A DNA stretch of 64,000 nt from an uncultured SAR86 cluster bacterium (lineage in GTDB: Bacteria; Pseudomonadota; Gammaproteobacteria; Magnimaribacterales; AG-339-G14), in NCBI GenBank assembly GCA_902526045.1, contig CABZJI010000001.1, positions 395,900 to 459,899 of the forward strand, written 5' to 3'. Positions 6,434-49,062 of this stretch are shown piece by piece. The notes below the pieces were generated by a model. That model did not search any database. It saw only the letters and a program-made list of their open reading frames with translations, and had not been told where the DNA came from. Made by a program: the position numbers and the translations under genes. The first letter of the stretch is position 1; the number at the start of each line of letters is the position of its first letter.

Positions 6434-7363
6434 ATGAGTAATAAGCTCAAATTTGGATTATTGGGAGCACTAGGGTACATAGCTCCTCGTCATATTCAAG
6501 CAATCAATAATATAAATGCAGAGCTGATATGCGTCAGTGATTTAGATTTCAATCTTGCTCAACAAAAAGAATTTCACTCTAAGAACGTAGAAACTTTCAA
6601 TAGTCTTGAGGAGATGATCAAATATCATCAACAACATAGCTTAGACTATATTTCTATTTGTACTCCAAATCATTTACACACTGAGCAAATAATTACTTGC
6701 CTTGAAAATAATATTAATGTGATTTGCGAAAAGCCACTAGCTTTATCTATAAAAGATTTAGATAAAATTAGAAAATCTGAACTTGGTTCTTCTGCATCGA
6801 TTTTTACAATAATGCAACTGAGATTTCACGAATCAATTATTCAATTGAAAGAAAAGATAACTTCACAAAGCTTAGAAGAAAAAAATGAGGTCATCCTTAT
6901 ATATGCTACAACCAGAGGTTCAGAATTTTTTTCATCCTGGAGAGGAAGTGAAAACACATCAGGAGGGATCCTTTTCGAATTTGGTATTCATTATTTGGAT
7001 ATTTTGATGGATATTTTTGGCCAAGTTATAAATTTCAATGTCAATAAGTTATCTCTTAATCAAGCTAACGTTCTTATTGAACATGAAAATGCGAAAGTCT
7101 TGATAATGATTAACGTTTTATCTAAAGAAAAACTTGAAGAGATGGGACAAGAGGAAGTGCTCTATAGATCTTTCACCATAAATGGCGAAGAATTTGAATT
7201 TACTGGCGGATTTCAAGATTTACATACTAGGAGTTATGAATCAATTCTTGAGGGTAAAGGCTTTACCGTTGAAGATGCTTCTAAATCAATTACTCAAATA
7301 TCTAAAATAATGGATGAGTTTGAAAAAGGTTCGACTTATAAACCAATTTTAAATAATCTTTGA
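6434..7363 (+). CDS. Gfo/Idh/MocA NAD-dependent dehydrogenase, WbpB/WlbA-like (UDP-sugar 3-dehydrogenase family)
   Basis: GALGYIAPRH, DYISICTPNHLH, VICEKPL, IMQLRFH, YRSFTINGEEFEFTGGFQDLHTRSYESILEGKGF resemble Pseudomonas WbpB as I recall it. Confidence 0.8.
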   Translation: MSNKLKFGLLGALGYIAPRHIQAINNINAELICVSDLDFNLAQQKEFHSKNVETFNSLEEMIKYHQQHSLDYISICTPNHLHTEQIITCLENNINVICEKPLALSIKDLDKIRKSELGSSASIFTIMQLRFHESIIQLKEKITSQSLEEKNEVILIYATTRGSEFFSSWRGSENTSGGILFEFGIHYLDILMDIFGQVINFNVNKLSLNQANVLIEHENAKVLIMINVLSKEKLEEMGQEEVLYRSFTINGEEFEFTGGFQDLHTRSYESILEGKGFTVEDASKSITQISKIMDEFEKGSTYKPILNNL

Positions 7364-7869
7364 AAATGCATAAAATTTCAACTCCAGATCTGAGCGATTT
7401 AAATCCAAGTGTTCCATTCATAGGCCTTCAATTTAACTCATATGGAGCGAGAGATTTTCTTTATGGGCCGATCAAAACAGTTTATGCCCCAAACGACAAT
7501 ACTTATGTGAAAAAGACTCTAGCTACAGAGGGACAAGGAGGAGTTCTTTTTGTCGATGGGAGCAAAAGTTTTGAGGTTGCACTCTTAGGAGACATGATTG
7601 CTAAAAGTGCCTATAAAAATAATTGGAACGGAATCATTATCCTCGGCTGCGTCAGAGACGTAGATGTCTTGAAAACAATCGATATGGGAATTTTTGCTCT
7701 AGGTTCTGTACCAAGAAAAAGTGAAAAAAAAGATCGAGGTTCGGTTGATGATCCAATTGAAATAAACGGACTAATTGTAAATTCAAAAGATTGGGTTTAT
7801 GGAGACTCAACAGGTGTATTAGTCTCCAAAGTGGAGCTGGCGATAGGAGTCGAACCTACGACCGCCTGA
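7360..7869 (+). CDS. rraA: RraA family protein (HMG aldolase / RNase E regulator-like)
   Basis: GPIKTV...DN..VK, GVLFVDG, ALLGDMIA, GCVRD, DWVYGDSTGVLV. Confidence 0.9.
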   Translation: MKMHKISTPDLSDLNPSVPFIGLQFNSYGARDFLYGPIKTVYAPNDNTYVKKTLATEGQGGVLFVDGSKSFEVALLGDMIAKSAYKNNWNGIIILGCVRDVDVLKTIDMGIFALGSVPRKSEKKDRGSVDDPIEINGLIVNSKDWVYGDSTGVLVSKVELAIGVEPTTA

Positions 7870-7907
7870 TTACAAATCAGGAGCTCTACCAACTGAGCTA
7901 CGCCAGC
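7832..7907 (-). tRNA. tRNA-Thr(UGU)
   Basis: Reverse complement GCTGGCG...CCTGA-TTTGTAA-TCAGG...GGTTCGACTCC...CGCCAGC-T-CCA, 76 nt cloverleaf. Confidence 0.98.
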
Positions 7908-7926: not shown

Positions 7927-8724
7927 TCATTTATCTAATTTTAAAGATACTTCTCCAGAACTAAATTTAACTATATTTTGGCCCTTTAAATTTTGAGCTA
8001 TTAAAAGTCCCTTGTTATCAATTCCTTTCCCAGTATAAGTAACGCTTGGGTTTTCTTTCAAAGTGAATTCCTTATTTCTCAATATATCTAAAGGAGCAAA
8101 TCTTTCATTGAAGTAACCAAAATCCTCTCGCTCAAACTTTATCAAGGTAGAGGATAGTTTCTTGATCATTTCCACAATGATTAAGTTTCGATCTATTGAT
8201 TGTTTCTTCTCTAATTTCATTGAGGTCCACTTTTGATCTATTAGTTCTGAGTATTCCATATTAACGTTAAGCCCAATTCCAATAACTACTTTGATTAATT
8301 CATCTTCTTTTGCTGTTTCTATGAGAATGCCACAAATCTTTTTATTTTTCACAAGAAGATCATTAGGCCATTTAATTAAAGCTTTTATATTGAATTCAGT
8401 CAGGACTTCAGATACCGATAAAGCTGTTGCTATGCTAAGACCAGATAAATCTTCTTTTTTCAAAAAAGAACCAAGCGAAAAATATATATTCTTAAATTTT
8501 GGACTGATCCAAGATTTTCCTCTACGTCCTCTACCTTTTGTTTGTTCTTCAGCTATGCATATTTTCATCTTTTTATCTTCTTTTATTTCTCTTTTTAAAA
8601 GGAAGTCATTCGTTGAACTTATACTATCGAATATCTCCAAAGAAACTCTTGTTCTTAAGTGATTATTCAGTTTTGATAGTATTTTTTTCTTATCTAAAGG
8701 ATTTTTGTTGACAACTTCCATCAT
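7927..8724 (-). CDS. birA: Biotin-[acetyl-CoA carboxylase] ligase lacking the N-terminal HTH; start corrected to ATG 8724 (or 8721)
   Basis: STND, AEEQTKGRGRRGKSWISP, KWPND, KICGILIE, GIGLNVN. The ORF-track extension to 8832 is antisense to tRNA-Tyr. Confidence 0.93.
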   Translation of the reverse strand: MMEVVNKNPLDKKKILSKLNNHLRTRVSLEIFDSISSTNDFLLKREIKEDKKMKICIAEEQTKGRGRRGKSWISPKFKNIYFSLGSFLKKEDLSGLSIATALSVSEVLTEFNIKALIKWPNDLLVKNKKICGILIETAKEDELIKVVIGIGLNVNMEYSELIDQKWTSMKLEKKQSIDRNLIIVEMIKKLSSTLIKFEREDFGYFNERFAPLDILRNKEFTLKENPSVTYTGKGIDNKGLLIAQNLKGQNIVKFSSGEVSLKLDK

Positions 8725-8736
8725 GACTCCGAGAAT
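8708..8736 (+). promoter_or_regulatory. sigma70 promoter for tRNA-Tyr
   Basis: TTGACA(8708-13)-17 bp-GAGAAT(8731-36); overlaps the birA start codon on the other strand. Confidence 0.6.
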
Positions 8737-8750
8737 ACCACGCTCTGATT

Positions 8751-8834
8751 GGAGGGGTTGGGGAGCGGTCAAACCCAGCTGACTGTAAATCAGCCGCTTC
8801 GGCTTCGCAGGTTCGAATCCTGCCCCCTCCACCA
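8751..8834 (+). tRNA. tRNA-Tyr(GUA)
   Basis: GGAGGGG...GCTGA-CTGTAAA-TCAGC, long variable arm, GGTTCGAATCC, encoded CCA; 84 nt. Confidence 0.97.
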
Positions 8835-8841
8835 GAAAATC

Positions 8842-8870
8842 TTGCCTTTATTGCAAGAAAGCAGTATAAA
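8842..8870 (+). promoter_or_regulatory. sigma70 promoter for tRNA-Thr-tuf-tRNA-Trp-secE
   Basis: TTGCCT-17 bp-TATAAA followed by GC-rich discriminator-like GCCTCC. Confidence 0.65.
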
Positions 8871-8956
8871 TGCCTCCGGAGCGAAAGGTCTAGAATAATA
8901 CATTGATTTTTAACCAATAATTTATTCTTTTTGATCCGGGATTTATGAACATTTAT

Positions 8957-9032
<76 letters not shown>

Positions 9033-9060
9033 GACAGAAAATTTTTAGAGAGGATAGATA

Positions 9061-10254
9061 ATGGCTAAAGAAAAATTTGAAAGAACCAAGCCCCACGTTA
9101 ACGTGGGAACCATCGGTCATGTTGATCATGGAAAAACTACCCTGACAGCTGCCTTAACAAAAGTTTGTGCAGAAACTCATGGATCAGGTGAAGCAGTAGC
9201 TTTTGATGGTATAGACAATGCTCCTGAAGAAAAAGAAAGAGGTATTACCATAGCGACTTCTCATGTTGAATATGATTCTCCAGCTAGACACTATGCGCAC
9301 GTGGACTGTCCTGGACACGCTGATTACGTAAAAAACATGATTACTGGAGCAGCTCAAATGGATGGAGCTATATTAGTGGTGAATGCTGCAGATGGACCTA
9401 TGCCTCAGACAAGGGAACATATACTTCTGGCTAGGCAAGTAGGCGTTGAACATATTGTTGTCTTTCTAAACAAAGCTGATCAAGTGGATGACGCAGAGTT
9501 AATTGAACTAGTGGAAGTTGAAATTAGAGATCTTTTAAATGAATACGATTTCCCTGGAGACGATACTCCAATAACAATTGGATCTGCATTAAAAGCTTTA
9601 GAAGGCGATGAAGGTGAGCACGGGAAAGAGGCTATTCTAAAATTAGTAGAGTCATTGGATGCTCATATTCCTGAGCCTGTAAGAGACCTAGATAAGCCAT
9701 TCTTAATGCCTATAGAAGATATTTTCTCGATTCAAGGAAGGGGAACTGTAGTTACAGGAAGAATTGAAAGAGGTATGGTTTCTGTGAACGATGAAATGGA
9801 GATTGTCGGTATTAAGGACACAGAAAAAACTACTTGCACCGGTGTGGAGATGTTCAGAAAACTTCTTGATGAAGGTCGTGCCGGTGAAAATGTCGGTGTA
9901 CTTCTTAGAGGTACGAAAAGAGAAGAGGTTGAAAGAGGTCAGGTTCTTTCAAAGCCAGGTTCAATTACACCTCATACAAAATTTGAAGCACAAGTTTATG
10001 TCTTAAATAAAGAAGAAGGTGGTAGACACACACCTTTTTTCAAAGGTTATAGACCACAATTTTATGTAAGAACTACCGATGTAACTGGTGAAGTCATTCT
10101 TCCAGATGGAGTTGAGATGGTCATGCCTGGTGATGATGTGGCAATAAATGTTGAGCTGATATCACCAATCGCAATGGAAGAAGGAATGCGTTTTGCTATC
10201 AGAGAAGGTGGAAGAACTGTCGGTTCCGGAGTAGTATCCAAGATCGTTCAATAG
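9061..10254 (+). CDS. tuf: Elongation factor Tu
   Basis: [46 protein letters not shown]. Confidence 0.99.
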
Positions 10255-10328
10255 GCCAGTAGCTCAATTGGTAGAGCGGCGGTCTCCAAAACCGCAGGTT
10301 GGGGGTTCGATTCCCTCCTGGCCTGCCA
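10253..10328 (+). tRNA. tRNA-Trp(CCA), overlapping the tuf stop codon by 2 nt
   Basis: AGGCCAG/CTGGCCT 7-bp acceptor stem, GCGGT-CTCCAAA-ACCGC anticodon arm, discriminator G plus CCA, 76 nt. Confidence 0.97.
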
Positions 10329-10354
10329 CGGAAATGGATATAAGATAGAACAAT

Positions 10355-10702
10355 ATGACTTCAGTTAGCAGTAAAATTTTATGGATCCTCGGGTCAGCAG
10401 TTATTTTGGTTGCTGTTTGGGGTAATTCTTTTTATTCAGAAGTAGCTTTACTGTACAGAACGTTGATTGTGATTGCCTTGCTAATCCTTGGACTAGGAAT
10501 TATTAGATTCACAATCTTTGGAAATTCTGCATACAACCTAATCATTACCTCGTTAACAGAAGTAAGAAAGGTAGTTTGGCCGAATAGATCTGAGACCACA
10601 CAAACGACACTTATAGTCTTAGCAGCAGTTATCGTTGCATCACTTATATTGTGGGGCCTGGACTCTCTTTTTTCTTTTGGATTAAATTTATTATTAAGGT
10701 AA
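10355..10702 (+). CDS. secE: Preprotein translocase subunit SecE
   Basis: EVRKVVWPNRSETTQTT motif, hydrophobic segments, upstream of nusG. Confidence 0.96.
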   Translation: MTSVSSKILWILGSAVILVAVWGNSFYSEVALLYRTLIVIALLILGLGIIRFTIFGNSAYNLIITSLTEVRKVVWPNRSETTQTTLIVLAAVIVASLILWGLDSLFSFGLNLLLR

Positions 10703-10704
10703 AA

Positions 10705-11238
10705 ATGTCAAAATCTTGGTATGTTCTCAATTCTTACTCCGGTTATGAAAATAAGGCTAAAGAACAGCTTGTTGAAAGAATAACTCTCCATGGTATGGAA
10801 GACTTTTTTGGAAAGATAGAAGTTCCTGCCGAAGAAATAACTGAGATGAAAGCAGGAAAAGAAAAAACTATTCAAAAGAAATTTTTCCCAGGATATATTT
10901 TAGTCGAAATGGAAATGAATGATGATACTTGGCATTTAGTTAAAGAAACTCCAAGGGTTCTGGGATTTATAGGAGGCACCAAAACAAACCCGAGACCTAT
11001 ATCAGAAAACGAAGCTAACAGAATTTTGAATCAAATTGAATCTGGAGTTGAAACATCCTCACAACAAAATATCTACGAGGCAGGAGAAATGATCAGAGTT
11101 ATTGATGGACCTTTTAATGATTTTAGTGGTGTGATTGAAGAGGTTGATCCAGAAAAAGGAAAGGTTAAAGTAGCAGTAATGATTTTTGGAAGATCAACTC
11201 CAGTGGAGTTAGATTTCAATCAAATTGAGAGGGCATAA
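10705..11238 (+). CDS. nusG: Transcription elongation factor NusG (start corrected to ATG 10705)
   Basis: [46 protein letters not shown]. Confidence 0.98.
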
Positions 11239-11669
11239 TGGCAGATAAGAAGATCGACACCTATATAAAACTTCAAGTACCTGCTGGAGCTGCCTCTCCT
11301 AGTCCTCCTGTTGGACCGGCTTTGGGTCAACACGGTGTTAATCTTATGGACTTTTGTAATGCATTCAATTCTAAAACCAATGATATGGAAAAGAATGTTC
11401 CTGTTCCTGTTGTAATTACAGTTTACGAAGATAAAAGTTTTGATTTTATTGTAAAGACAACTCCTGCGAGCATTCTTTTAAAAAAGGCTGCTGGACTTGA
11501 TAAAGGAAGCCCGACACCTAATTCTTTAAAGGTAGGAAAAGTAACTATTGCTCAAGTAGAGGAAATAGCTCAAAAGAAGATGCAAGACCTTAATGCTGCT
11601 GATATGAATGCCGCAGTAAAAATCATTTCTGGAAGTGCAAGAAGTATGGGAATAGAGGTAATAGATTAA
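11238..11669 (+). CDS. rplK: 50S ribosomal protein L11
   Basis: [23 protein letters not shown]. Confidence 0.99.
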
Positions 11670-12364
11670 TGGTTAAAACATCAAAAAAGATTAATCTTTT
11701 AAGAGAAAAGTTAGACAGAGCAGCCGCTTATAATTTTGAAGAAGCTTTAGATATCCTTTTTAAACATAAATCTGAAAAATTCACTGAGGCAGTAGATGTG
11801 AGCATTAATTTAGGTGTAGATCCATCAAAGTCAGACCAAAATGTTAGAGGGGCATCTAATCTTCCCCATGGCACTGGTCGATCTTACAAAGTAGCTGTTT
11901 TTGCAGAGGGTGATGATGCTAAAAGTGCTCTTGAAGCTGGAGCTGATAAGGTAGGCATGGAAGAACTCGCTGATGAAATGAAATCTGGGGAAATAGACTA
12001 TGATGTTATTGTTGCTACTCCTGATACTATGAAAATTGTTAGTCCTTTGGGTCAGATCCTTGGACCTAAAGGTTTAATGCCAAATCCTAAGTCTGAAACT
12101 GTGACAAAGGATGTTTCTAGTGCAGTAAAGAATGCCAAGGCAGGTCAAGTTAGATTTAAATCTGATAAGCAAGGAATAGTTCATTGCAGGATAGGTCAAA
12201 TAACTCAAAGTAAAGAAGAAATTAAAAACAACTTGCAATATTTTTTAGCAGATTTAAAAAAATCAAAACCGCCTTCGTCTAAAGGAGTTTTCATTTCAAA
12301 AGTTTCAATGTCATCAACTATGGGACCTGGATTAGAAATTGACATTTCCTCTCTCAATTTCTGA
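11669..12364 (+). CDS. rplA: 50S ribosomal protein L1
   Basis: DQNVRGASNLPHGTG, LGPKGLMPNPK, SSTMGPG. Confidence 0.99.
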   Translation: MVKTSKKINLLREKLDRAAAYNFEEALDILFKHKSEKFTEAVDVSINLGVDPSKSDQNVRGASNLPHGTGRSYKVAVFAEGDDAKSALEAGADKVGMEELADEMKSGEIDYDVIVATPDTMKIVSPLGQILGPKGLMPNPKSETVTKDVSSAVKNAKAGQVRFKSDKQGIVHCRIGQITQSKEEIKNNLQYFLADLKKSKPPSSKGVFISKVSMSSTMGPGLEIDISSLNF

Positions 12365-12427
12365 TTTTTTCCTGTATGATGCGCGGTCTAGAATATTTAA
12401 ATAAGCATTTGCGTTTTCGCGATTGTC

Positions 12428-12484
12428 TTAGACCGCATGTGTTTTTTGGTAATTGCCACAAAAACTTAATTACATGCGTAGATG
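12428..12484 (+). promoter_or_regulatory. L10 leader (L10-L12 binding autoregulatory RNA)
   Basis: AGACCGCATGT...CTTAA..ACATGCGTAGA reproduces the AGAC-helix-UAGA kink-turn architecture of rplJ leaders, upstream of rplJ. Confidence 0.75.
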
Positions 12485-12545
12485 TACCAGGTTTTACAAG
12501 TCCTGGTTGGAGGTTCTCTCACTTTAGAAAAGAGAGGTTTATTTA

Positions 12546-13064
12546 ATGCCGCGTTTAGAAGAAAAGAAATTAGTCGTAGATGAGTTAAAAAAGGTAGCTG
12601 ATGAGGCCTTATCAGCCGTTGTCGTTGATTATAGAGGTACTAATGTTCCTGACTTAACTCTTTTAAGAAAAGATGCTTCATCTAGTTCTGTATATTTAAG
12701 AGTAATAAAAAATACTCTGGCTAAAAGAGCGTTGGAAGGAACTAAATTTAATTCAATCAATGAAGTTCTTAGTGGACCTAGTTTATTTGCTTTTTCTCTT
12801 GATGACTTTAAAAGCGCTGCAAAACTCGTAAAAGATTTCTCAAAATCTCATGAGTCATTTAGCGTGAAAGGCTTGTCAGTTGGCGAAGGACTTTTAGATG
12901 CTAGTGAACTAGATAGACTAGCTTCATTGCCTTCAAAGGAAGAAGCAATTTCTATGTTAATGAGCGTACTTAAAAGTCCAATTTCAAAATTTGCAGGTGG
13001 ATTGCACAATGTGCCGTCAAATTTTGTAAGAACTTTTGATGCGATAAAAGAAGCAAAATCTTAA
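12546..13064 (+). CDS. rplJ: 50S ribosomal protein L10
   Basis: VVDYRGT.V..LT.LRK, VIKNTLAKRALEGT, LASLPSKEE. Confidence 0.98.
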   Translation: MPRLEEKKLVVDELKKVADEALSAVVVDYRGTNVPDLTLLRKDASSSSVYLRVIKNTLAKRALEGTKFNSINEVLSGPSLFAFSLDDFKSAAKLVKDFSKSHESFSVKGLSVGEGLLDASELDRLASLPSKEEAISMLMSVLKSPISKFAGGLHNVPSNFVRTFDAIKEAKS

Positions 13065-22651: not shown

Positions 22652-24769
22652 ATGAGCGGCAGAAAGGTTCCACTTAAACTATATAGAAACATCGGTATTT
22701 GCGCTCACGTAGATGCCGGTAAAACAACTACTACTGAGAGAGTTTTATATTACACAGGAATATCTCACAAAATTGGAGAGGTCCACGATGGTGCTGCGAC
22801 CATGGATTGGATGGAACAAGAGCAAGAAAGAGGGATAACTATCACATCAGCTGCCACTACTTGTTTCTGGAAAGGAATGAAACAGCAGTTTGACGAGCAC
22901 AGAGTCAACATCATAGATACTCCTGGGCACGTGGATTTCACCATTGAAGTTGAAAGATCTTTAAGAGTATTGGATGGCGCAGTCGTTGTTTTTTGCGGTA
23001 GTTCCGGCGTTGAGCCTCAGTCTGAAACAGTATGGAGACAAGCAAACCGATATAAGGTCCCTAGAATTGCCTTTATAAATAAAATGGATAGAGCTGGTGC
23101 AAACTTTCTGAATGTAGTTAAGCAGATGAAAGAGAGATTGGGCGCTTCACCTGTTCCCATCAACCTTCCAATTGGTGCTGAAGATGATTTCCAGGGAATG
23201 GTTGACTTGATTTCAATGAAAGCACTTTATTTTGATCTTGATGATATGGGTAAATCATACAGAGAAGAGGATATCCCTGAATCAATGATTGCTGAATGTG
23301 AAAATTACAGAGAGCAAATGCTTGAATCTGCTGCTGAAGCTTCTGAAGATCTCATGGATAAATATCTTGAAAATGGCGATCTTACCGAAGAGGAAATCAT
23401 TTTAGGTCTCAGGCAAAGAACATTATCTAATGAAATAGTTTTATGTCTATGTGGCTCAGCATTTAAAAATAAAGGAGTTCAGTGTGTTTTGGATGCTGTA
23501 GTTAACTTTCTTCCTTCGCCTGATGAGGTAGAGGCAATTAAAGGTGTCCTTGAAGACGAAGAGACTGAAGATCAAAGATCTTCTAGTGACGAAGAGCCTT
23601 TTTCTGCATTAGCTTTCAAGATAGCTACAGATCCATTTGTAGGAACCTTAACATTTATAAGAGTTTACTCAGGAGTTTTATCATCTGGAGATTCTGTTTA
23701 TTCTCCCTCTCGAAGATCAAAGGAAAGAATTGGTAGGATGTTGCAGATGCATGCTAACAATAGAACAGAAATTTCTGAGGTAAGGGCGGGAGATATTTGC
23801 GCAGTAATTGGTTTGAAAGATGTTAGTACTGGAGAAACTCTTTGCGATAGAGACAAGTCTATTATCTTGGAGAGAATGACTTTTCCAGAACCTGTTATTT
23901 CAGTGGCTGTTGAGCCTAAAACTAAAACTGATCAAGAAAAAATGTCTACTGCTTTAGGCAGACTAGCGCAAGAGGATCCATCTTTCAGAGTGAATAGCGA
24001 TGAAGAATCTGGTCAAACAATTATTTCTGGAATGGGAGAACTTCATTTAGACGTGATTGTTGATAGGATGAAACGAGAATTCGATGTTGAAGCTAACATT
24101 GGCAAGCCTCAGGTTGCATATAGAGAGACTATTAAACAGATGGTCGAGTCCGAAGGAAAATTTGTAAGACAATCAGGCGGTAAAGGGCAATATGGACATG
24201 TTTGGATAAAAATTGAGCCTTTAGTTCATGAGGATACTGAAGAAGAAGACAGAGATATTTATGAATTCGTGAATTCAATTGTAGGAGGAACAATTCCAAG
24301 AGAATTTATTCCAGCTGTTGATAAAGGTGTTAAAGAACAGATGGAAGCTGGTGTTATTGCTGGGTACCCCTTGATTGATGTAAAAGTCACCCTCTATGAT
24401 GGTTCTTTCCATGACGTTGATTCAAGCGAGATAGCATTTAAGGTAGCCGCTTCACAAGCCTTAAAAGATGGAGCTATGAGAGCTAGGCCCGTTCTGCTCG
24501 AACCAATTATGAAGTTAGAAGTTGTGACTCCAGAAGAATACATGGGAGATGTCGTAGGAGACTTAAATAGAAGACGAGGAATTGTTCAGGGAATGAATGA
24601 TATACCGTCTGGAAAGGCTCTAAATGGTGAAGTTCCTCTGGCTGAAATGTTTGGTTACGCAACGGATTTAAGATCTGCAACTCAAGGCAGAGCAACATTT
24701 ACTATGGAGCCTCTCAAGTACTCCGAAGTCCCCAATAATGTTGCAGAATCCATCATAAATAAAAGCTAA
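22652..24769 (+). CDS. fusA: Elongation factor G
   Basis: [34 protein letters not shown]. Confidence 0.99.
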
Positions 24770-24777
24770 TACGCTTG

Positions 24778-24806
24778 TTGACATCGAATCGATGTCCCAA
24801 TAGAAT
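24778..24806 (+). promoter_or_regulatory. Near-consensus sigma70 promoter of the S10 operon
   Basis: TTGACA(24778-83)-17 bp-TAGAAT(24801-06), followed by GC-rich TGCCGC. Confidence 0.8.
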
Positions 24807-24813
24807 TGCCGCT

Positions 24814-24851
24814 CGTCCGTGAGATGGATGAATCGATTTATGGATAAATCG
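24814..24851 (+). promoter_or_regulatory. S10-operon leader hairpins (putative L4-responsive leader)
   Basis: Hairpins CGTCCGT-GAG-ATGGATG and CGATTTA-TGGA-TAAATCG between the promoter and rpsJ; function inferred from position. Confidence 0.5.
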
Positions 24852-24892
24852 TTTAGTTCTTTAACAGATATTTATTACTTTTGGAGGTTGGT

Positions 24893-25216
24893 TTGCAAGA
24901 CCAGAATATTAGAATTCGGCTCAAAGCTTTTGACAATAAATTAATTGATAAATCGGCAAGAGAAATTGTTGATACTGTTAAAAGAACTGGCGCGGTTGTT
25001 AAAGGACCAATACCAATGCCTGTCAAAAAAAGTCGCACAACTATTCTAATCTCGCCGCATAAAGATAAAGATGCACGAGATCAATATGAAATTAGAACCT
25101 ATAAAAGAGTGATGGATATCATCAAGCCCACTGAAAAAACTGTAGATGCTTTAATGAAGCTTGATCTTTCCGCTGGGGTTGACGTTCAAATCTCACTAGA
25201 TGAGTTAAGTAAATAA
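24893..25216 (+). CDS. rpsJ: 30S ribosomal protein S10 (UUG start at 24893)
   Basis: [13 protein letters not shown] aligns to the S10 N-terminus; GGAGG SD 5 nt upstream; [11 protein letters not shown]. Confidence 0.97.
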
Positions 25217-25217
25217 A

Positions 25218-25853
25218 ATGATTGGATTGATAGGCTTAAAAGAAGGAATGTCACGGGTTTTCACAGAAGATGGAAATTCTGTGCCTGTTACCGTTGTAAA
25301 AATCGAATCCAATGTTGTAACTCAAATAAAAAAAATTAATTCAGAAGGTTACTCATCAGTACAAATATCTACCGGAACCAAAAAAGAAAAACGCCTCACT
25401 AAACCCGAAAAAGCCCATCTCAATAAATCAAACACCACCTCAGCAAAAACAATTAAAGAATTCCGAATCCAAGAATCAGATTTAGAAAATATCGAACTTG
25501 GTCAATCATTGGAATTAAACATGTTTGAAGAGGGTCAGGTAATTGATGTAACAGGAACAACCAAAGGAAAAGGTTTTGCTGGTACGGTCAAACGTTGGAA
25601 TTTTGCAACACAAGATGCAACACATGGAAATTCTTTAGCACATAGAAAACCTGGATCTATTGGTCAATGTCAAACTCCTGGAAGGGTTTGGAAAGGAAAA
25701 AAAATGGCAGGTCATTTAGGTAACTCCCGTCAGACAACACAAAATCTACTAATACAAAAAATAGATCTGGAAAATAATATTATTTTAGTAAAAGGTGCTT
25801 TGCCTGGATCTAAAGGTTCACCCGTCATCATAAAGCCAGCAACTAAAAACTAA
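25218..25853 (+). CDS. rplC: 50S ribosomal protein L3
   Basis: GTTKGKGFAGTVKRWNF, GKKMAGHLG. Confidence 0.99.
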   Translation: MIGLIGLKEGMSRVFTEDGNSVPVTVVKIESNVVTQIKKINSEGYSSVQISTGTKKEKRLTKPEKAHLNKSNTTSAKTIKEFRIQESDLENIELGQSLELNMFEEGQVIDVTGTTKGKGFAGTVKRWNFATQDATHGNSLAHRKPGSIGQCQTPGRVWKGKKMAGHLGNSRQTTQNLLIQKIDLENNIILVKGALPGSKGSPVIIKPATKN

Positions 25854-48166: not shown

Positions 48167-48515
48167 TGGTGGAGGCGGCGGGTATCGAACCCGCGTCCAA
48201 CTAACTCTTACCTTCAGATCTACATGCTTATTTCATCAATTTTCTTTTACTTCCATGGCCCGATGAAAAGGGATTAGAAGAGTAAGCTCAGAAAAGTCTT
48301 GTCAAAATGTGTCTGAGCAACACATTTCAAGCATTCTACTAGTCGACTTCGCTTATCCCTTAGTAGAAGTCAGGGTAAGGAAGCTAGCTTAATTATGCAG
48401 CTAGTGCGTAGTTGTTTTTGCCAACTAATTGTTTTGAGAACTGTTTAACGAGAACTTCTCATTCTCGACATGCACTTTAGGTTCGAAAGAAAGATGTCTA
48501 ATCCTGTTCGCCCCC
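48167..48515 (-). ncRNA. ssrA: tmRNA
   Basis: GGGGGCG/CGCCTCC-A-CCA acceptor stem with G3:U, T-arm GGTTCGATACCC, internal tag ORF ending YALAA* (48422-48393); adjacent to smpB. Confidence 0.96.
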
Positions 48516-48546: not shown

Positions 48547-49014
48547 TCAGTTAGAAAAATTTTCTAAAGAAGATTTTTCTTTCCTCCACTCCTTATTTTT
48601 CAACGAGTGTCTCTTATCATATTTTGATTTACCTCGAGCCACATAGATTTTTACTTTGACTAAATTATTTTTCCAAAAAATTTTTACAGGGACGCAACTT
48701 AATCCTTTTTCATTTGTTTGCTTAAAAAGCTTAGATAACTCTGATTTGGTGAGTAAAAGCTTTCTAGATCTTTCTGATGAGACCTCATAAGTGATTTCTT
48801 TCGTAGGGAGAATCTTCAACCCAATAATCCATGCTTCTCCATTTTTTAAAACAACGTAAGCATTTTTGAATTCTATCTGTCCATTTCTTATACTTTTTAC
48901 TTCCCAGCCCTCCAAGGAAATTCCTGCTTCAAAATCATCTAAAAGCTCATAATTAAATCTTGCTTGACGATTTTCGATTGTCGGTCGCAAGTTCCTTTTT
49001 TTGGAGTTATTCAT
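48547..49014 (-). CDS. smpB: SsrA-binding protein (start likely ATG 49014)
   Basis: ENRQARFNY, EAGISLEGWEVKS, RSRKLLL, ARGKSKYDKR. Confidence 0.96.
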   Translation of the reverse strand: MNNSKKRNLRPTIENRQARFNYELLDDFEAGISLEGWEVKSIRNGQIEFKNAYVVLKNGEAWIIGLKILPTKEITYEVSSERSRKLLLTKSELSKLFKQTNEKGLSCVPVKIFWKNNLVKVKIYVARGKSKYDKRHSLKNKEWRKEKSSLENFSN

Positions 49015-49062
49015 TGATATAGTATATCTATTAAGCAATGATTCTTTTAGAGACGTCTACAA

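Follow-up and report, generated by a model that had tools for sequence, protein, structure and literature searches.

The stop codon of tuf shares two nucleotides with the 5' end of tRNA-Trp in SAR86 bacteria

We report that tuf, the gene for EF-Tu, runs directly into the gene for tRNA-Trp in an uncultured bacterium (assembly GCA_902526045.1, contig CABZJI010000001.1, positions 395,900 to 459,899), which related loci place in the SAR86 cluster, order Magnimaribacterales. The whole stretch of 64,000 nucleotides (nt) that was analysed is called the window, and all coordinates refer to it. The 3' end of tuf reads ATC GTT CAA TAG, then GCCAGTAGCTCAATTGG, and the last two letters of this stop codon (T10252, A10253, G10254) are at the same time the first two bases of the tRNA, giving an overlap of exactly 2 nt with a U at tRNA position -1. 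The junction comprises the following features:

9061 to 10254, + strand: tuf, encoding EF-Tu of 397 amino acids, with its stop codon TAG at 10252-10254 (open reading frame list; Pfam)
10253 to 10328, + strand: tRNA-Trp(CCA) (ARAGORN; Rfam RF00005)
10253 to 10254, + strand: the shared nucleotides, in which bases 2 and 3 of the stop codon are bases 1 and 2 (A1, G2) of tRNA-Trp
10252 to 10253, + strand: predicted RNase P cleavage site between U10252 (-1) and A10253 (+1), placed from the 5' boundary of the tRNA and the established action of RNase P

A sequence-only reading of this DNA had already claimed that the two genes share two nucleotides, with A10253 as base 1 of the tRNA and U at -1, and the sequence, the list of open reading frames (ORFs), ARAGORN and Rfam all agree with it. 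The RF00005 match reaches 72.6 bits, where the gathering score is 29; it begins at 10253 and spans the full model, positions 1-71. The acceptor strand A10253-G-G-C-C-A-G pairs with C-T-G-G-C-C-T10324, with the A1-U72 pair present, G73 at 10325 and the CCA encoded at 10326-10328, and folding the junction in context gives back the cloverleaf of tRNA-Trp. A1-U72 and G73 are identity elements for tryptophanyl-tRNA synthetase (TrpRS), which fixes the 5' end of the tRNA at A10253, and U(-1) is the leader base preferred by RNase P; in the fold of the junction it is able to pair with G73. A cut by RNase P at 10252/10253 would split the tuf stop codon and leave an mRNA that ends in CAA-U and lacks a stop, a deduction of the earlier reading that holds for a cut which is itself predicted from the tRNA boundary.

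On the other side of the junction, the domains PF00009, PF03144 and PF03143 (GTP_EFTU, D2 and D3) are matched by an identical protein, and the 397-residue EF-Tu can be aligned over its whole length with its counterparts in other Proteobacteria and has the canonical C-terminus. TAG is an ordinary stop here: it ends 14 of the 65 ORFs in the window, which rules out the idea that it is a rare, forced choice at this junction. Annotation pipelines that forbid overlaps between coding sequences (CDS) and tRNAs would truncate or shift either tuf or tRNA-Trp.

The overlap is conserved in relatives, another point on which the earlier reading had asked to be judged. The exact EF-Tu protein occurs on at least 23 contigs, and in the 10 of these that were compared (L001-L010, each from a different metagenome assembly) the junction is identical. 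It is likewise present as a -2 overlap in the 12 of 12 SAR86 species representatives that cover the junction (one genome per species, retrieved via NusG; L011-13 and L015-23), for a total of 22/22 SAR86 junctions. These representatives form four sublineages, with EF-Tu 85-99% identical to that of the window, and a great deal has changed around the junction: identity to the window at third codon positions of tuf is 0.45-0.53 across sublineages, so that synonymous sites are near saturation, the final sense codon is CAA or GAG, and the spacers from tRNA-Trp to secE are not alignable between sublineages. The tRNA-Trp sequence is the same in all of them save one base of the T loop. For SAR86 depth, a SecE word-index search returned matches that were all at least 61% identical, and the representative search gave mostly contigs shorter than 1 kb. 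A candidate leader-trailer stem flanking the tRNA (UAUCCA/UGGAUA, in the fold of 10180-10360) was rejected, having a z-score of -1.1 and being absent from the other SAR86 sublineages.

This sampling excludes an artefact, whether a spacer collapsed by assembly, which had been named as the way the overlap might prove false, or a mis-called tRNA boundary. The junction is the same in 22 independent assemblies that include single-cell genomes, metagenome-assembled genomes and several metagenome projects, two independent tRNA callers (ARAGORN and Rfam) agree on position 1, and the AGGCCAG/CTGGCCT acceptor stem is common to 39 of 50 outgroups described below. As to the contigs themselves, four from Tara (L002, L003, L004 and L010) start exactly 78 nt upstream of the tuf ATG, inside tRNA-Thr(GGU), and one from JGI (L007) stops precisely with the CCA of tRNA-Trp. 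It appears that tRNA genes shared by different strains are places where metagenome assemblies break, and these contig ends are not transcript ends.

This tuf had been suspected to be the only one, and tblastn does find a single tuf in the window; tRNA-Trp is likewise single-copy within these 64 kb. Both canonical tuf positions lie inside the window and one is occupied: a 111-nt spacer separates fusA (22652-24769) from rpsJ, and the tufA that is usual in Gammaproteobacteria is missing there (24769-25218). Because tufA is absent after fusA, the supercluster has no tuf other than the one flanked by tRNAs.

The genes around the junction run in the order tRNA-Tyr, tRNA-Thr, tuf, tRNA-Trp, secE, nusG, rplK, rplA, rplJ, rplL, rpoB, rpoC, rpsL, rpsG, fusA, rpsJ, with the rest of the S10 operon after rpsJ. 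Those nearest to tuf, together with a candidate promoter, are:

8708 to 8736, + strand: sigma-70-like promoter TTGACA-17 nt-GAGAAT, upstream of tRNA-Tyr (consensus scan, 10/12)
8751 to 8834, + strand: tRNA-Tyr(GTA) (ARAGORN; RF00005, 57 bits)
8957 to 9032, + strand: tRNA-Thr(GGT), with an encoded CCA (ARAGORN; Rfam, 75.3 bits); the tuf ATG lies 28 nt downstream
10355 to 10702, + strand: secE (NCBIfam SecE), starting 26 nt past the 3' end of tRNA-Trp
10705 to 11238, + strand: nusG (Pfam NusG on the identical locus L001; gene spacing)

The hexamers and spacing of the promoter-like sequence are conserved in all four SAR86 sublineages, with variable flanks, and it likely drives the whole unit. From 8700 to 12400, a range that includes the gap between tRNA-Trp and secE, a terminator scan found no terminator-like site on the + strand, and rplK and rplA follow nusG directly with 1-nt overlaps. 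Neither a promoter nor a terminator can fit between tuf and tRNA-Trp, given two genes on the same strand that overlap by 2 nt. A complete tuf mRNA must hold at least bases 1-2 of the tRNA because of the overlap and, there being no terminator, will hold the whole tRNA. By this arrangement tuf and tRNA-Trp appear to be co-transcribed, and tRNA-Tyr, tRNA-Thr, tuf, tRNA-Trp and secE appear to form one unit.

The alternative is separate expression, in which an unrecognised promoter in the 3' region of tuf would be the main source of tRNA-Trp-secE-nusG and transcripts reading through from tuf would be poor substrates for RNase P, so that the stop codon would seldom be destroyed. There is precedent for it: a promoter dedicated to secE-nusG lies beside the tufB terminator in Enterobacterales and other Gammaproteobacteria (PMC6735719), promoter-like sequence is found upstream of tRNA-Trp in outgroups with long spacers, and U(-1) can pair with G73. 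U(-1) with G73 is the common state in the outgroups as well, however, and a complete tuf mRNA must enter the tRNA and meets no terminator after it. A relaxed -35/-10 scan over the last 400 nt of tuf in 12 SAR86 genomes found no conserved sigma-70-like site, and a third-position conservation scan over the last 140 tuf codons found no constrained stretch, a consensus scan such as the former being weak evidence. With neither of them supporting an internal promoter at the 3' end of tuf, this candidate was dropped, and we regard separate expression as unlikely.

The genome is compact, with many gaps between genes of -1 to 25 nt, and the window holds a second overlap between a CDS and a tRNA. An ORF for RraA (7360-7869, + strand) extends 38 nt into the convergent tRNA-Thr(UGU) (7832-7907, - strand). 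The NCBIfam profile for RraA stops at residue 160 of 169, and the last nine or so codons are antisense tRNA sequence. This overlap is limited to the SAR86 sublineage to which the window belongs; in the remaining sublineages another gene lies upstream and ends 3 nt short of tRNA-Thr(UGU). The conserved tRNA-Tyr promoter covers part of the probable beginning of the divergent birA (7927 to about 8724, - strand), whose mechanical ORF reaches 8832 merely by reading through antisense tRNA-Tyr. Further downstream, the 181-nt gap between rplA and rplJ (12365-12545), where an L10 leader is expected, has no Rfam match at the gathering threshold and contains a mechanical ORF of 56 amino acids (12376-12546).

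Outside SAR86, 50 gamma- and betaproteobacteria share the gene order and have spacers of 5-161 nt between tuf and tRNA-Trp, with the 2-nt overlap in none of the 50. Their tRNA-Trp starts with AGG in every case and with AGGCCAG in 39; 31 have T at -1, 14 have C and 5 have A, and U(-1) together with G73 is the common state here too. In 11 of the 31 with T(-1), the latent TAG that T(-1)A1G2 forms shares the reading frame of tuf, a number that equals chance expectation. In most spacers of at least 41 nt the sequence folds as a GC-rich hairpin, often with a run of T after it, which looks like the terminator of tuf; the outgroups with long spacers have promoter-like sequence ahead of tRNA-Trp. Spacers of 5-35 nt that lack a hairpin occur in six outgroups, and these look like intermediate states. 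Two further marine relatives of low GC content (38-40%) that were found via SecE (44-57% identical to that of the window in tblastn, 42-54% in the representative search) also retain spacers. One of them, L113, has a spacer of 66 nt with a terminator-like hairpin and T run, on a contig that covers only the 3' end of tuf, tRNA-Trp and secE; another, L114/L115, has a spacer of 37 nt and shares the order tRNA-Tyr, tRNA-Thr, tuf, tRNA-Trp, secE.

The same overlap is found elsewhere. A metagenome scan for the pattern GGRTVG, 27 nt, TAGG and then a non-C at tRNA position 4, which leaves out the SAR86 acceptor stem, gave 14 contigs, and in 14/14 the TAG of tuf supplies bases 1-2 of a tRNA-Trp called by ARAGORN. 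Judged from these contigs, the 2-nt overlap has arisen independently in at least four lineages outside SAR86. Two have AGGAGTG acceptors and 61-65% GC, and their EF-Tu falls in 90%-identity clusters named 'Stellaceae bacterium' and 'Nitrobacter sp.' (NCBI), on the basis of which we assign them to Alphaproteobacteria (GC-rich, soil). The other two, L098 (42% GC, acceptor AGGTCAG) and L100 (61% GC, acceptor AGGGGCG), each have EF-Tu in a singleton cluster. A member of the 'Nitrobacter sp.' cluster is also found in an ordinary fusA-tuf-rpsJ context, so these Alphaproteobacteria carry a second tuf with a normal 3' end. On this evidence we take the overlap to be a recurrent outcome that is neither limited to streamlined genomes nor tied to a single tuf. 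That the overlap is seen in genomes with 61-65% GC, and that spacers persist in some low-GC marine relatives, weakens streamlining as the sole cause.

The gene order on these contigs varies: L094 and L098 read fusA-tuf-tRNA-Trp-secE, followed in L094 by rplJ, and L092 reads tuf-tRNA-Trp-secE-nusG...rpoBC-rpsLG. The order in L094 seems to result from an assembly that passed through two near-identical copies of tuf and not to be the real one; the tuf/tRNA junction itself is short enough to lie within a read.

The region corresponds to the ancestral gammaproteobacterial translation supercluster, tufB-(tRNA)-secE-nusG, which has been described with a tRNA gene in the ancestral secE operon (Brandis et al., PMC6735719). 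Like the tufB operon of E. coli and Salmonella, the SAR86 locus has tRNA genes upstream of tuf and then secE-nusG-rplKAJL-rpoBC-str-S10. Enterobacterales lost this tRNA and carry, from tufB to secE, a terminator and a promoter that overlap each other (PMC6735719); SAR86, unlike them, has lost the terminator, the promoter, the spacer and tufA.

We favour, with a probability of about 0.6, the explanation that the overlap is what resulted when the spacer was lost from between neighbouring genes that were probably already co-transcribed, and that it is tolerated, being probably near-neutral, and is not a dedicated regulator. The ancestor would have had the gammaproteobacterial arrangement, tufB / tRNA-Trp-secE-nusG. 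As bacterial tRNA-Trp starts A1-G2 and RNase P favours U(-1), a latent stop U(-1)A1G2 would have lain at the 5' edge of tRNA-Trp, able to be in frame with tuf. Deletion in the SAR86 ancestor would then have removed the old tuf stop codon, the terminator hairpin and the spacer, leaving the last sense codon to abut U(-1) and tuf to terminate on the recruited TAG.

Expression of such a locus might proceed as follows. The promoter at 8708-8736 would serve tRNA-Tyr, tRNA-Thr, tuf, tRNA-Trp, secE, nusG and onwards, and EF-Tu would be translated from the unprocessed precursor, in which the UAG is intact. When UAG occupies the A site of a ribosome, some twelve nucleotides further downstream lie in its mRNA channel. 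The terminating ribosome would thereby keep tRNA positions 1 to about 11 single-stranded, so that translation and folding of the tRNA would exclude each other at that moment, and because the channel covers all of the 5' acceptor strand and the first part of the D arm, termination and recognition by RNase P could not be simultaneous; heavy ribosome traffic on tuf should delay the folding of tRNA-Trp. Once folded, the tRNA would be cut by RNase P between U10252 and A10253, yielding the mature 5' end of the tRNA and a tuf mRNA ending in CAA-U-3'OH. Without a stop codon and without protective 3' structure, the cut mRNA would be removed quickly by 3' exonucleases. Ribosomes remaining on it would run to the end and be released by tmRNA-SmpB or another rescue factor, and a non-tagging rescue (such as by ArfA or ArfB) would release intact EF-Tu, since the stop-less mRNA still encodes every residue of the protein. 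Each tRNA-Trp from the unit would be tied to the end of one tuf mRNA.

Some points weigh against this explanation. What is said of co-transcription, of the place of cleavage and of what becomes of the tuf mRNA is deduced from sequence. The overlap is conserved despite near-saturated synonymous divergence, which could mean that selection maintains it. EF-Tu is normally the most abundant protein and this appears to be the sole tuf, so that even modest stop-less translation could be costly and cleavage could be limited or timed. Finally, a consensus scan leaves room for a non-canonical internal promoter.

The locus is reminiscent of secG-leuU of E. coli, the only experimentally studied bacterial mRNA-tRNA co-transcript, in which the spacer is 14 nt and a single cut by RNase P makes the 5' end of the tRNA (Mohanty & Kushner, PMC2241853). 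In both, a protein gene is followed by a same-strand tRNA, with no promoter or terminator found between them. The one cut in secG-leuU makes the mRNA's 3' end as well, and the upstream mRNA is degraded exonucleolytically, as we infer for SAR86; the secG mRNA has a half-life below 30 s after the cut, through PNPase and PAP I, with its stop codon intact (PMC2241853). Whereas that stop survives the cut, in SAR86 the cut would fall inside the stop codon, and whereas secG-leuU has its own terminator, SAR86 transcription apparently runs on into secE-nusG-rplKA. By analogy, the SAR86 locus would behave as a secG-leuU whose spacer has shrunk to -2.

Where a bacterial ORF overlaps a downstream tRNA, the closest bioinformatic precedent is selB-selC, with overlaps known from Alpha- and Gammaproteobacteria as well as from Nitrospirae (Mukai 2021, PMC8124441). 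There too the ORF of a translation factor overlaps a downstream same-strand tRNA, and the overlap is conserved within clades and dispensable in relatives. In selB-selC the overlap is much larger, the tRNA is nested or the stop codon lies at tRNA positions 46-48, and the tRNA is translated as a C-terminal extension; in SAR86, by contrast, two bases are shared and the protein is unchanged.

The sequence-only reading had also supposed that ribosomes stalled on a cut tuf mRNA could be rescued by trans-translation with a tag AGKNNYALAA. The machinery is encoded in the window, as transfer-messenger RNA (tmRNA) and SmpB:

48167 to 48515, - strand: tmRNA (ARAGORN, tag GKNNYALAA; Rfam RF00023, 160 bits)
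48547 to 49038, - strand: smpB (NCBIfam NF003843, 177.8 bits against a cutoff of 130)

The encoded tag matches AGKNNYALAA once the charged Ala is counted, and EF-Tu might be tagged with it. What does not find support is the larger proposal that the overlap is a device coupling the supply of EF-Tu to that of tRNA-Trp. In such a selected coupling, terminating ribosomes would gate RNase P, tRNA-Trp would mature as translation of tuf wanes, and the cut would bring non-stop decay and tagging of EF-Tu, balancing the output of the two products. The overlap in every SAR86 junction sampled despite near-saturated synonymous divergence, the sole tuf in the window and the presence of tmRNA and SmpB all speak for it, as does a similar proposal for the selB-selC overlaps, where coupling was likewise hypothesised from sequence alone (PMC8124441). 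Yet the overlap recurs in Alphaproteobacteria whose EF-Tu clusters include ordinary fusA-tuf-rpsJ copies, and thus beside a second, ordinary tuf. No conserved accessory structure was found, the flanking stem in the fold not being conserved, and deletion bias in streamlined genomes accounts for persistence of the overlap without selection. The example of secG weakens the proposal further: its mRNA is destroyed after the cut with the stop codon intact, and gone in under 30 s, so the two lost bases probably add little beyond what a short spacer would do. Selected coupling is in our judgement rather unlikely, and tolerated spacer loss the better account.

In mitochondria, Ojala, Montoya and Attardi reportedly described in 1981 a tRNA punctuation with incomplete stop codons. 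The SAR86 junction would resemble it, in that excision of the tRNA would set the mRNA's 3' end and leave the U of the stop. The mitochondrial genome holds no complete stop there, and polyadenylation has been shown to complete it, whereas the SAR86 precursor has an in-frame TAG at 10252-10254 that would be usable before processing. A comparable completion would have PAP I or PNPase oligoadenylate CAA-U to give UAA, so that processed tuf mRNA stays translatable. Two added A would turn any U(-1) end into UAA, in every lineage with the overlap, and about 24% of E. coli secG-leuU clones carry 1-5 non-templated A (PMC2241853); but oligo(A) tails in bacteria mark RNA for 3' exonucleolytic decay and not for stabilisation, which makes completion very unlikely here. 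Improbable, too, is a bolder combination, in which the sole tuf of this free-living bacterium, abundant across the globe, would be under mitochondria-like punctuation that is actively managed, by ribosome gating or by oligoadenylation that rebuilds UAA, and the overlap would be a conserved control point for EF-Tu and tRNA-Trp reinvented in several lineages.

We found no description of a tuf/tRNA-Trp overlap in bacteria in the full-text literature, which is partly searchable, so that this is weak evidence of novelty. RNA ends at the junction could feasibly be mapped, since a cultured SAR86 isolate, Magnimaribacter mokuoloeensis HIMB1674, exists (PMC11582366). If RNase P does cut the sole tuf stop codon, then translation, tRNA maturation and ribosome rescue would compete on one phosphodiester bond, a competition otherwise known from organelles only, and the locus would offer a clean system for studying the order of translation and processing on mRNA-tRNA co-transcripts and the tolerance of non-stop translation. 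Since the overlap recurs in soil Alphaproteobacteria, it is an outcome that evolution can reach repeatedly from the U(-1)A1G2 boundary and not a one-off. If the overlap is merely tolerated, as is more likely, it would be an illustration of genome streamlining and not a new mechanism.

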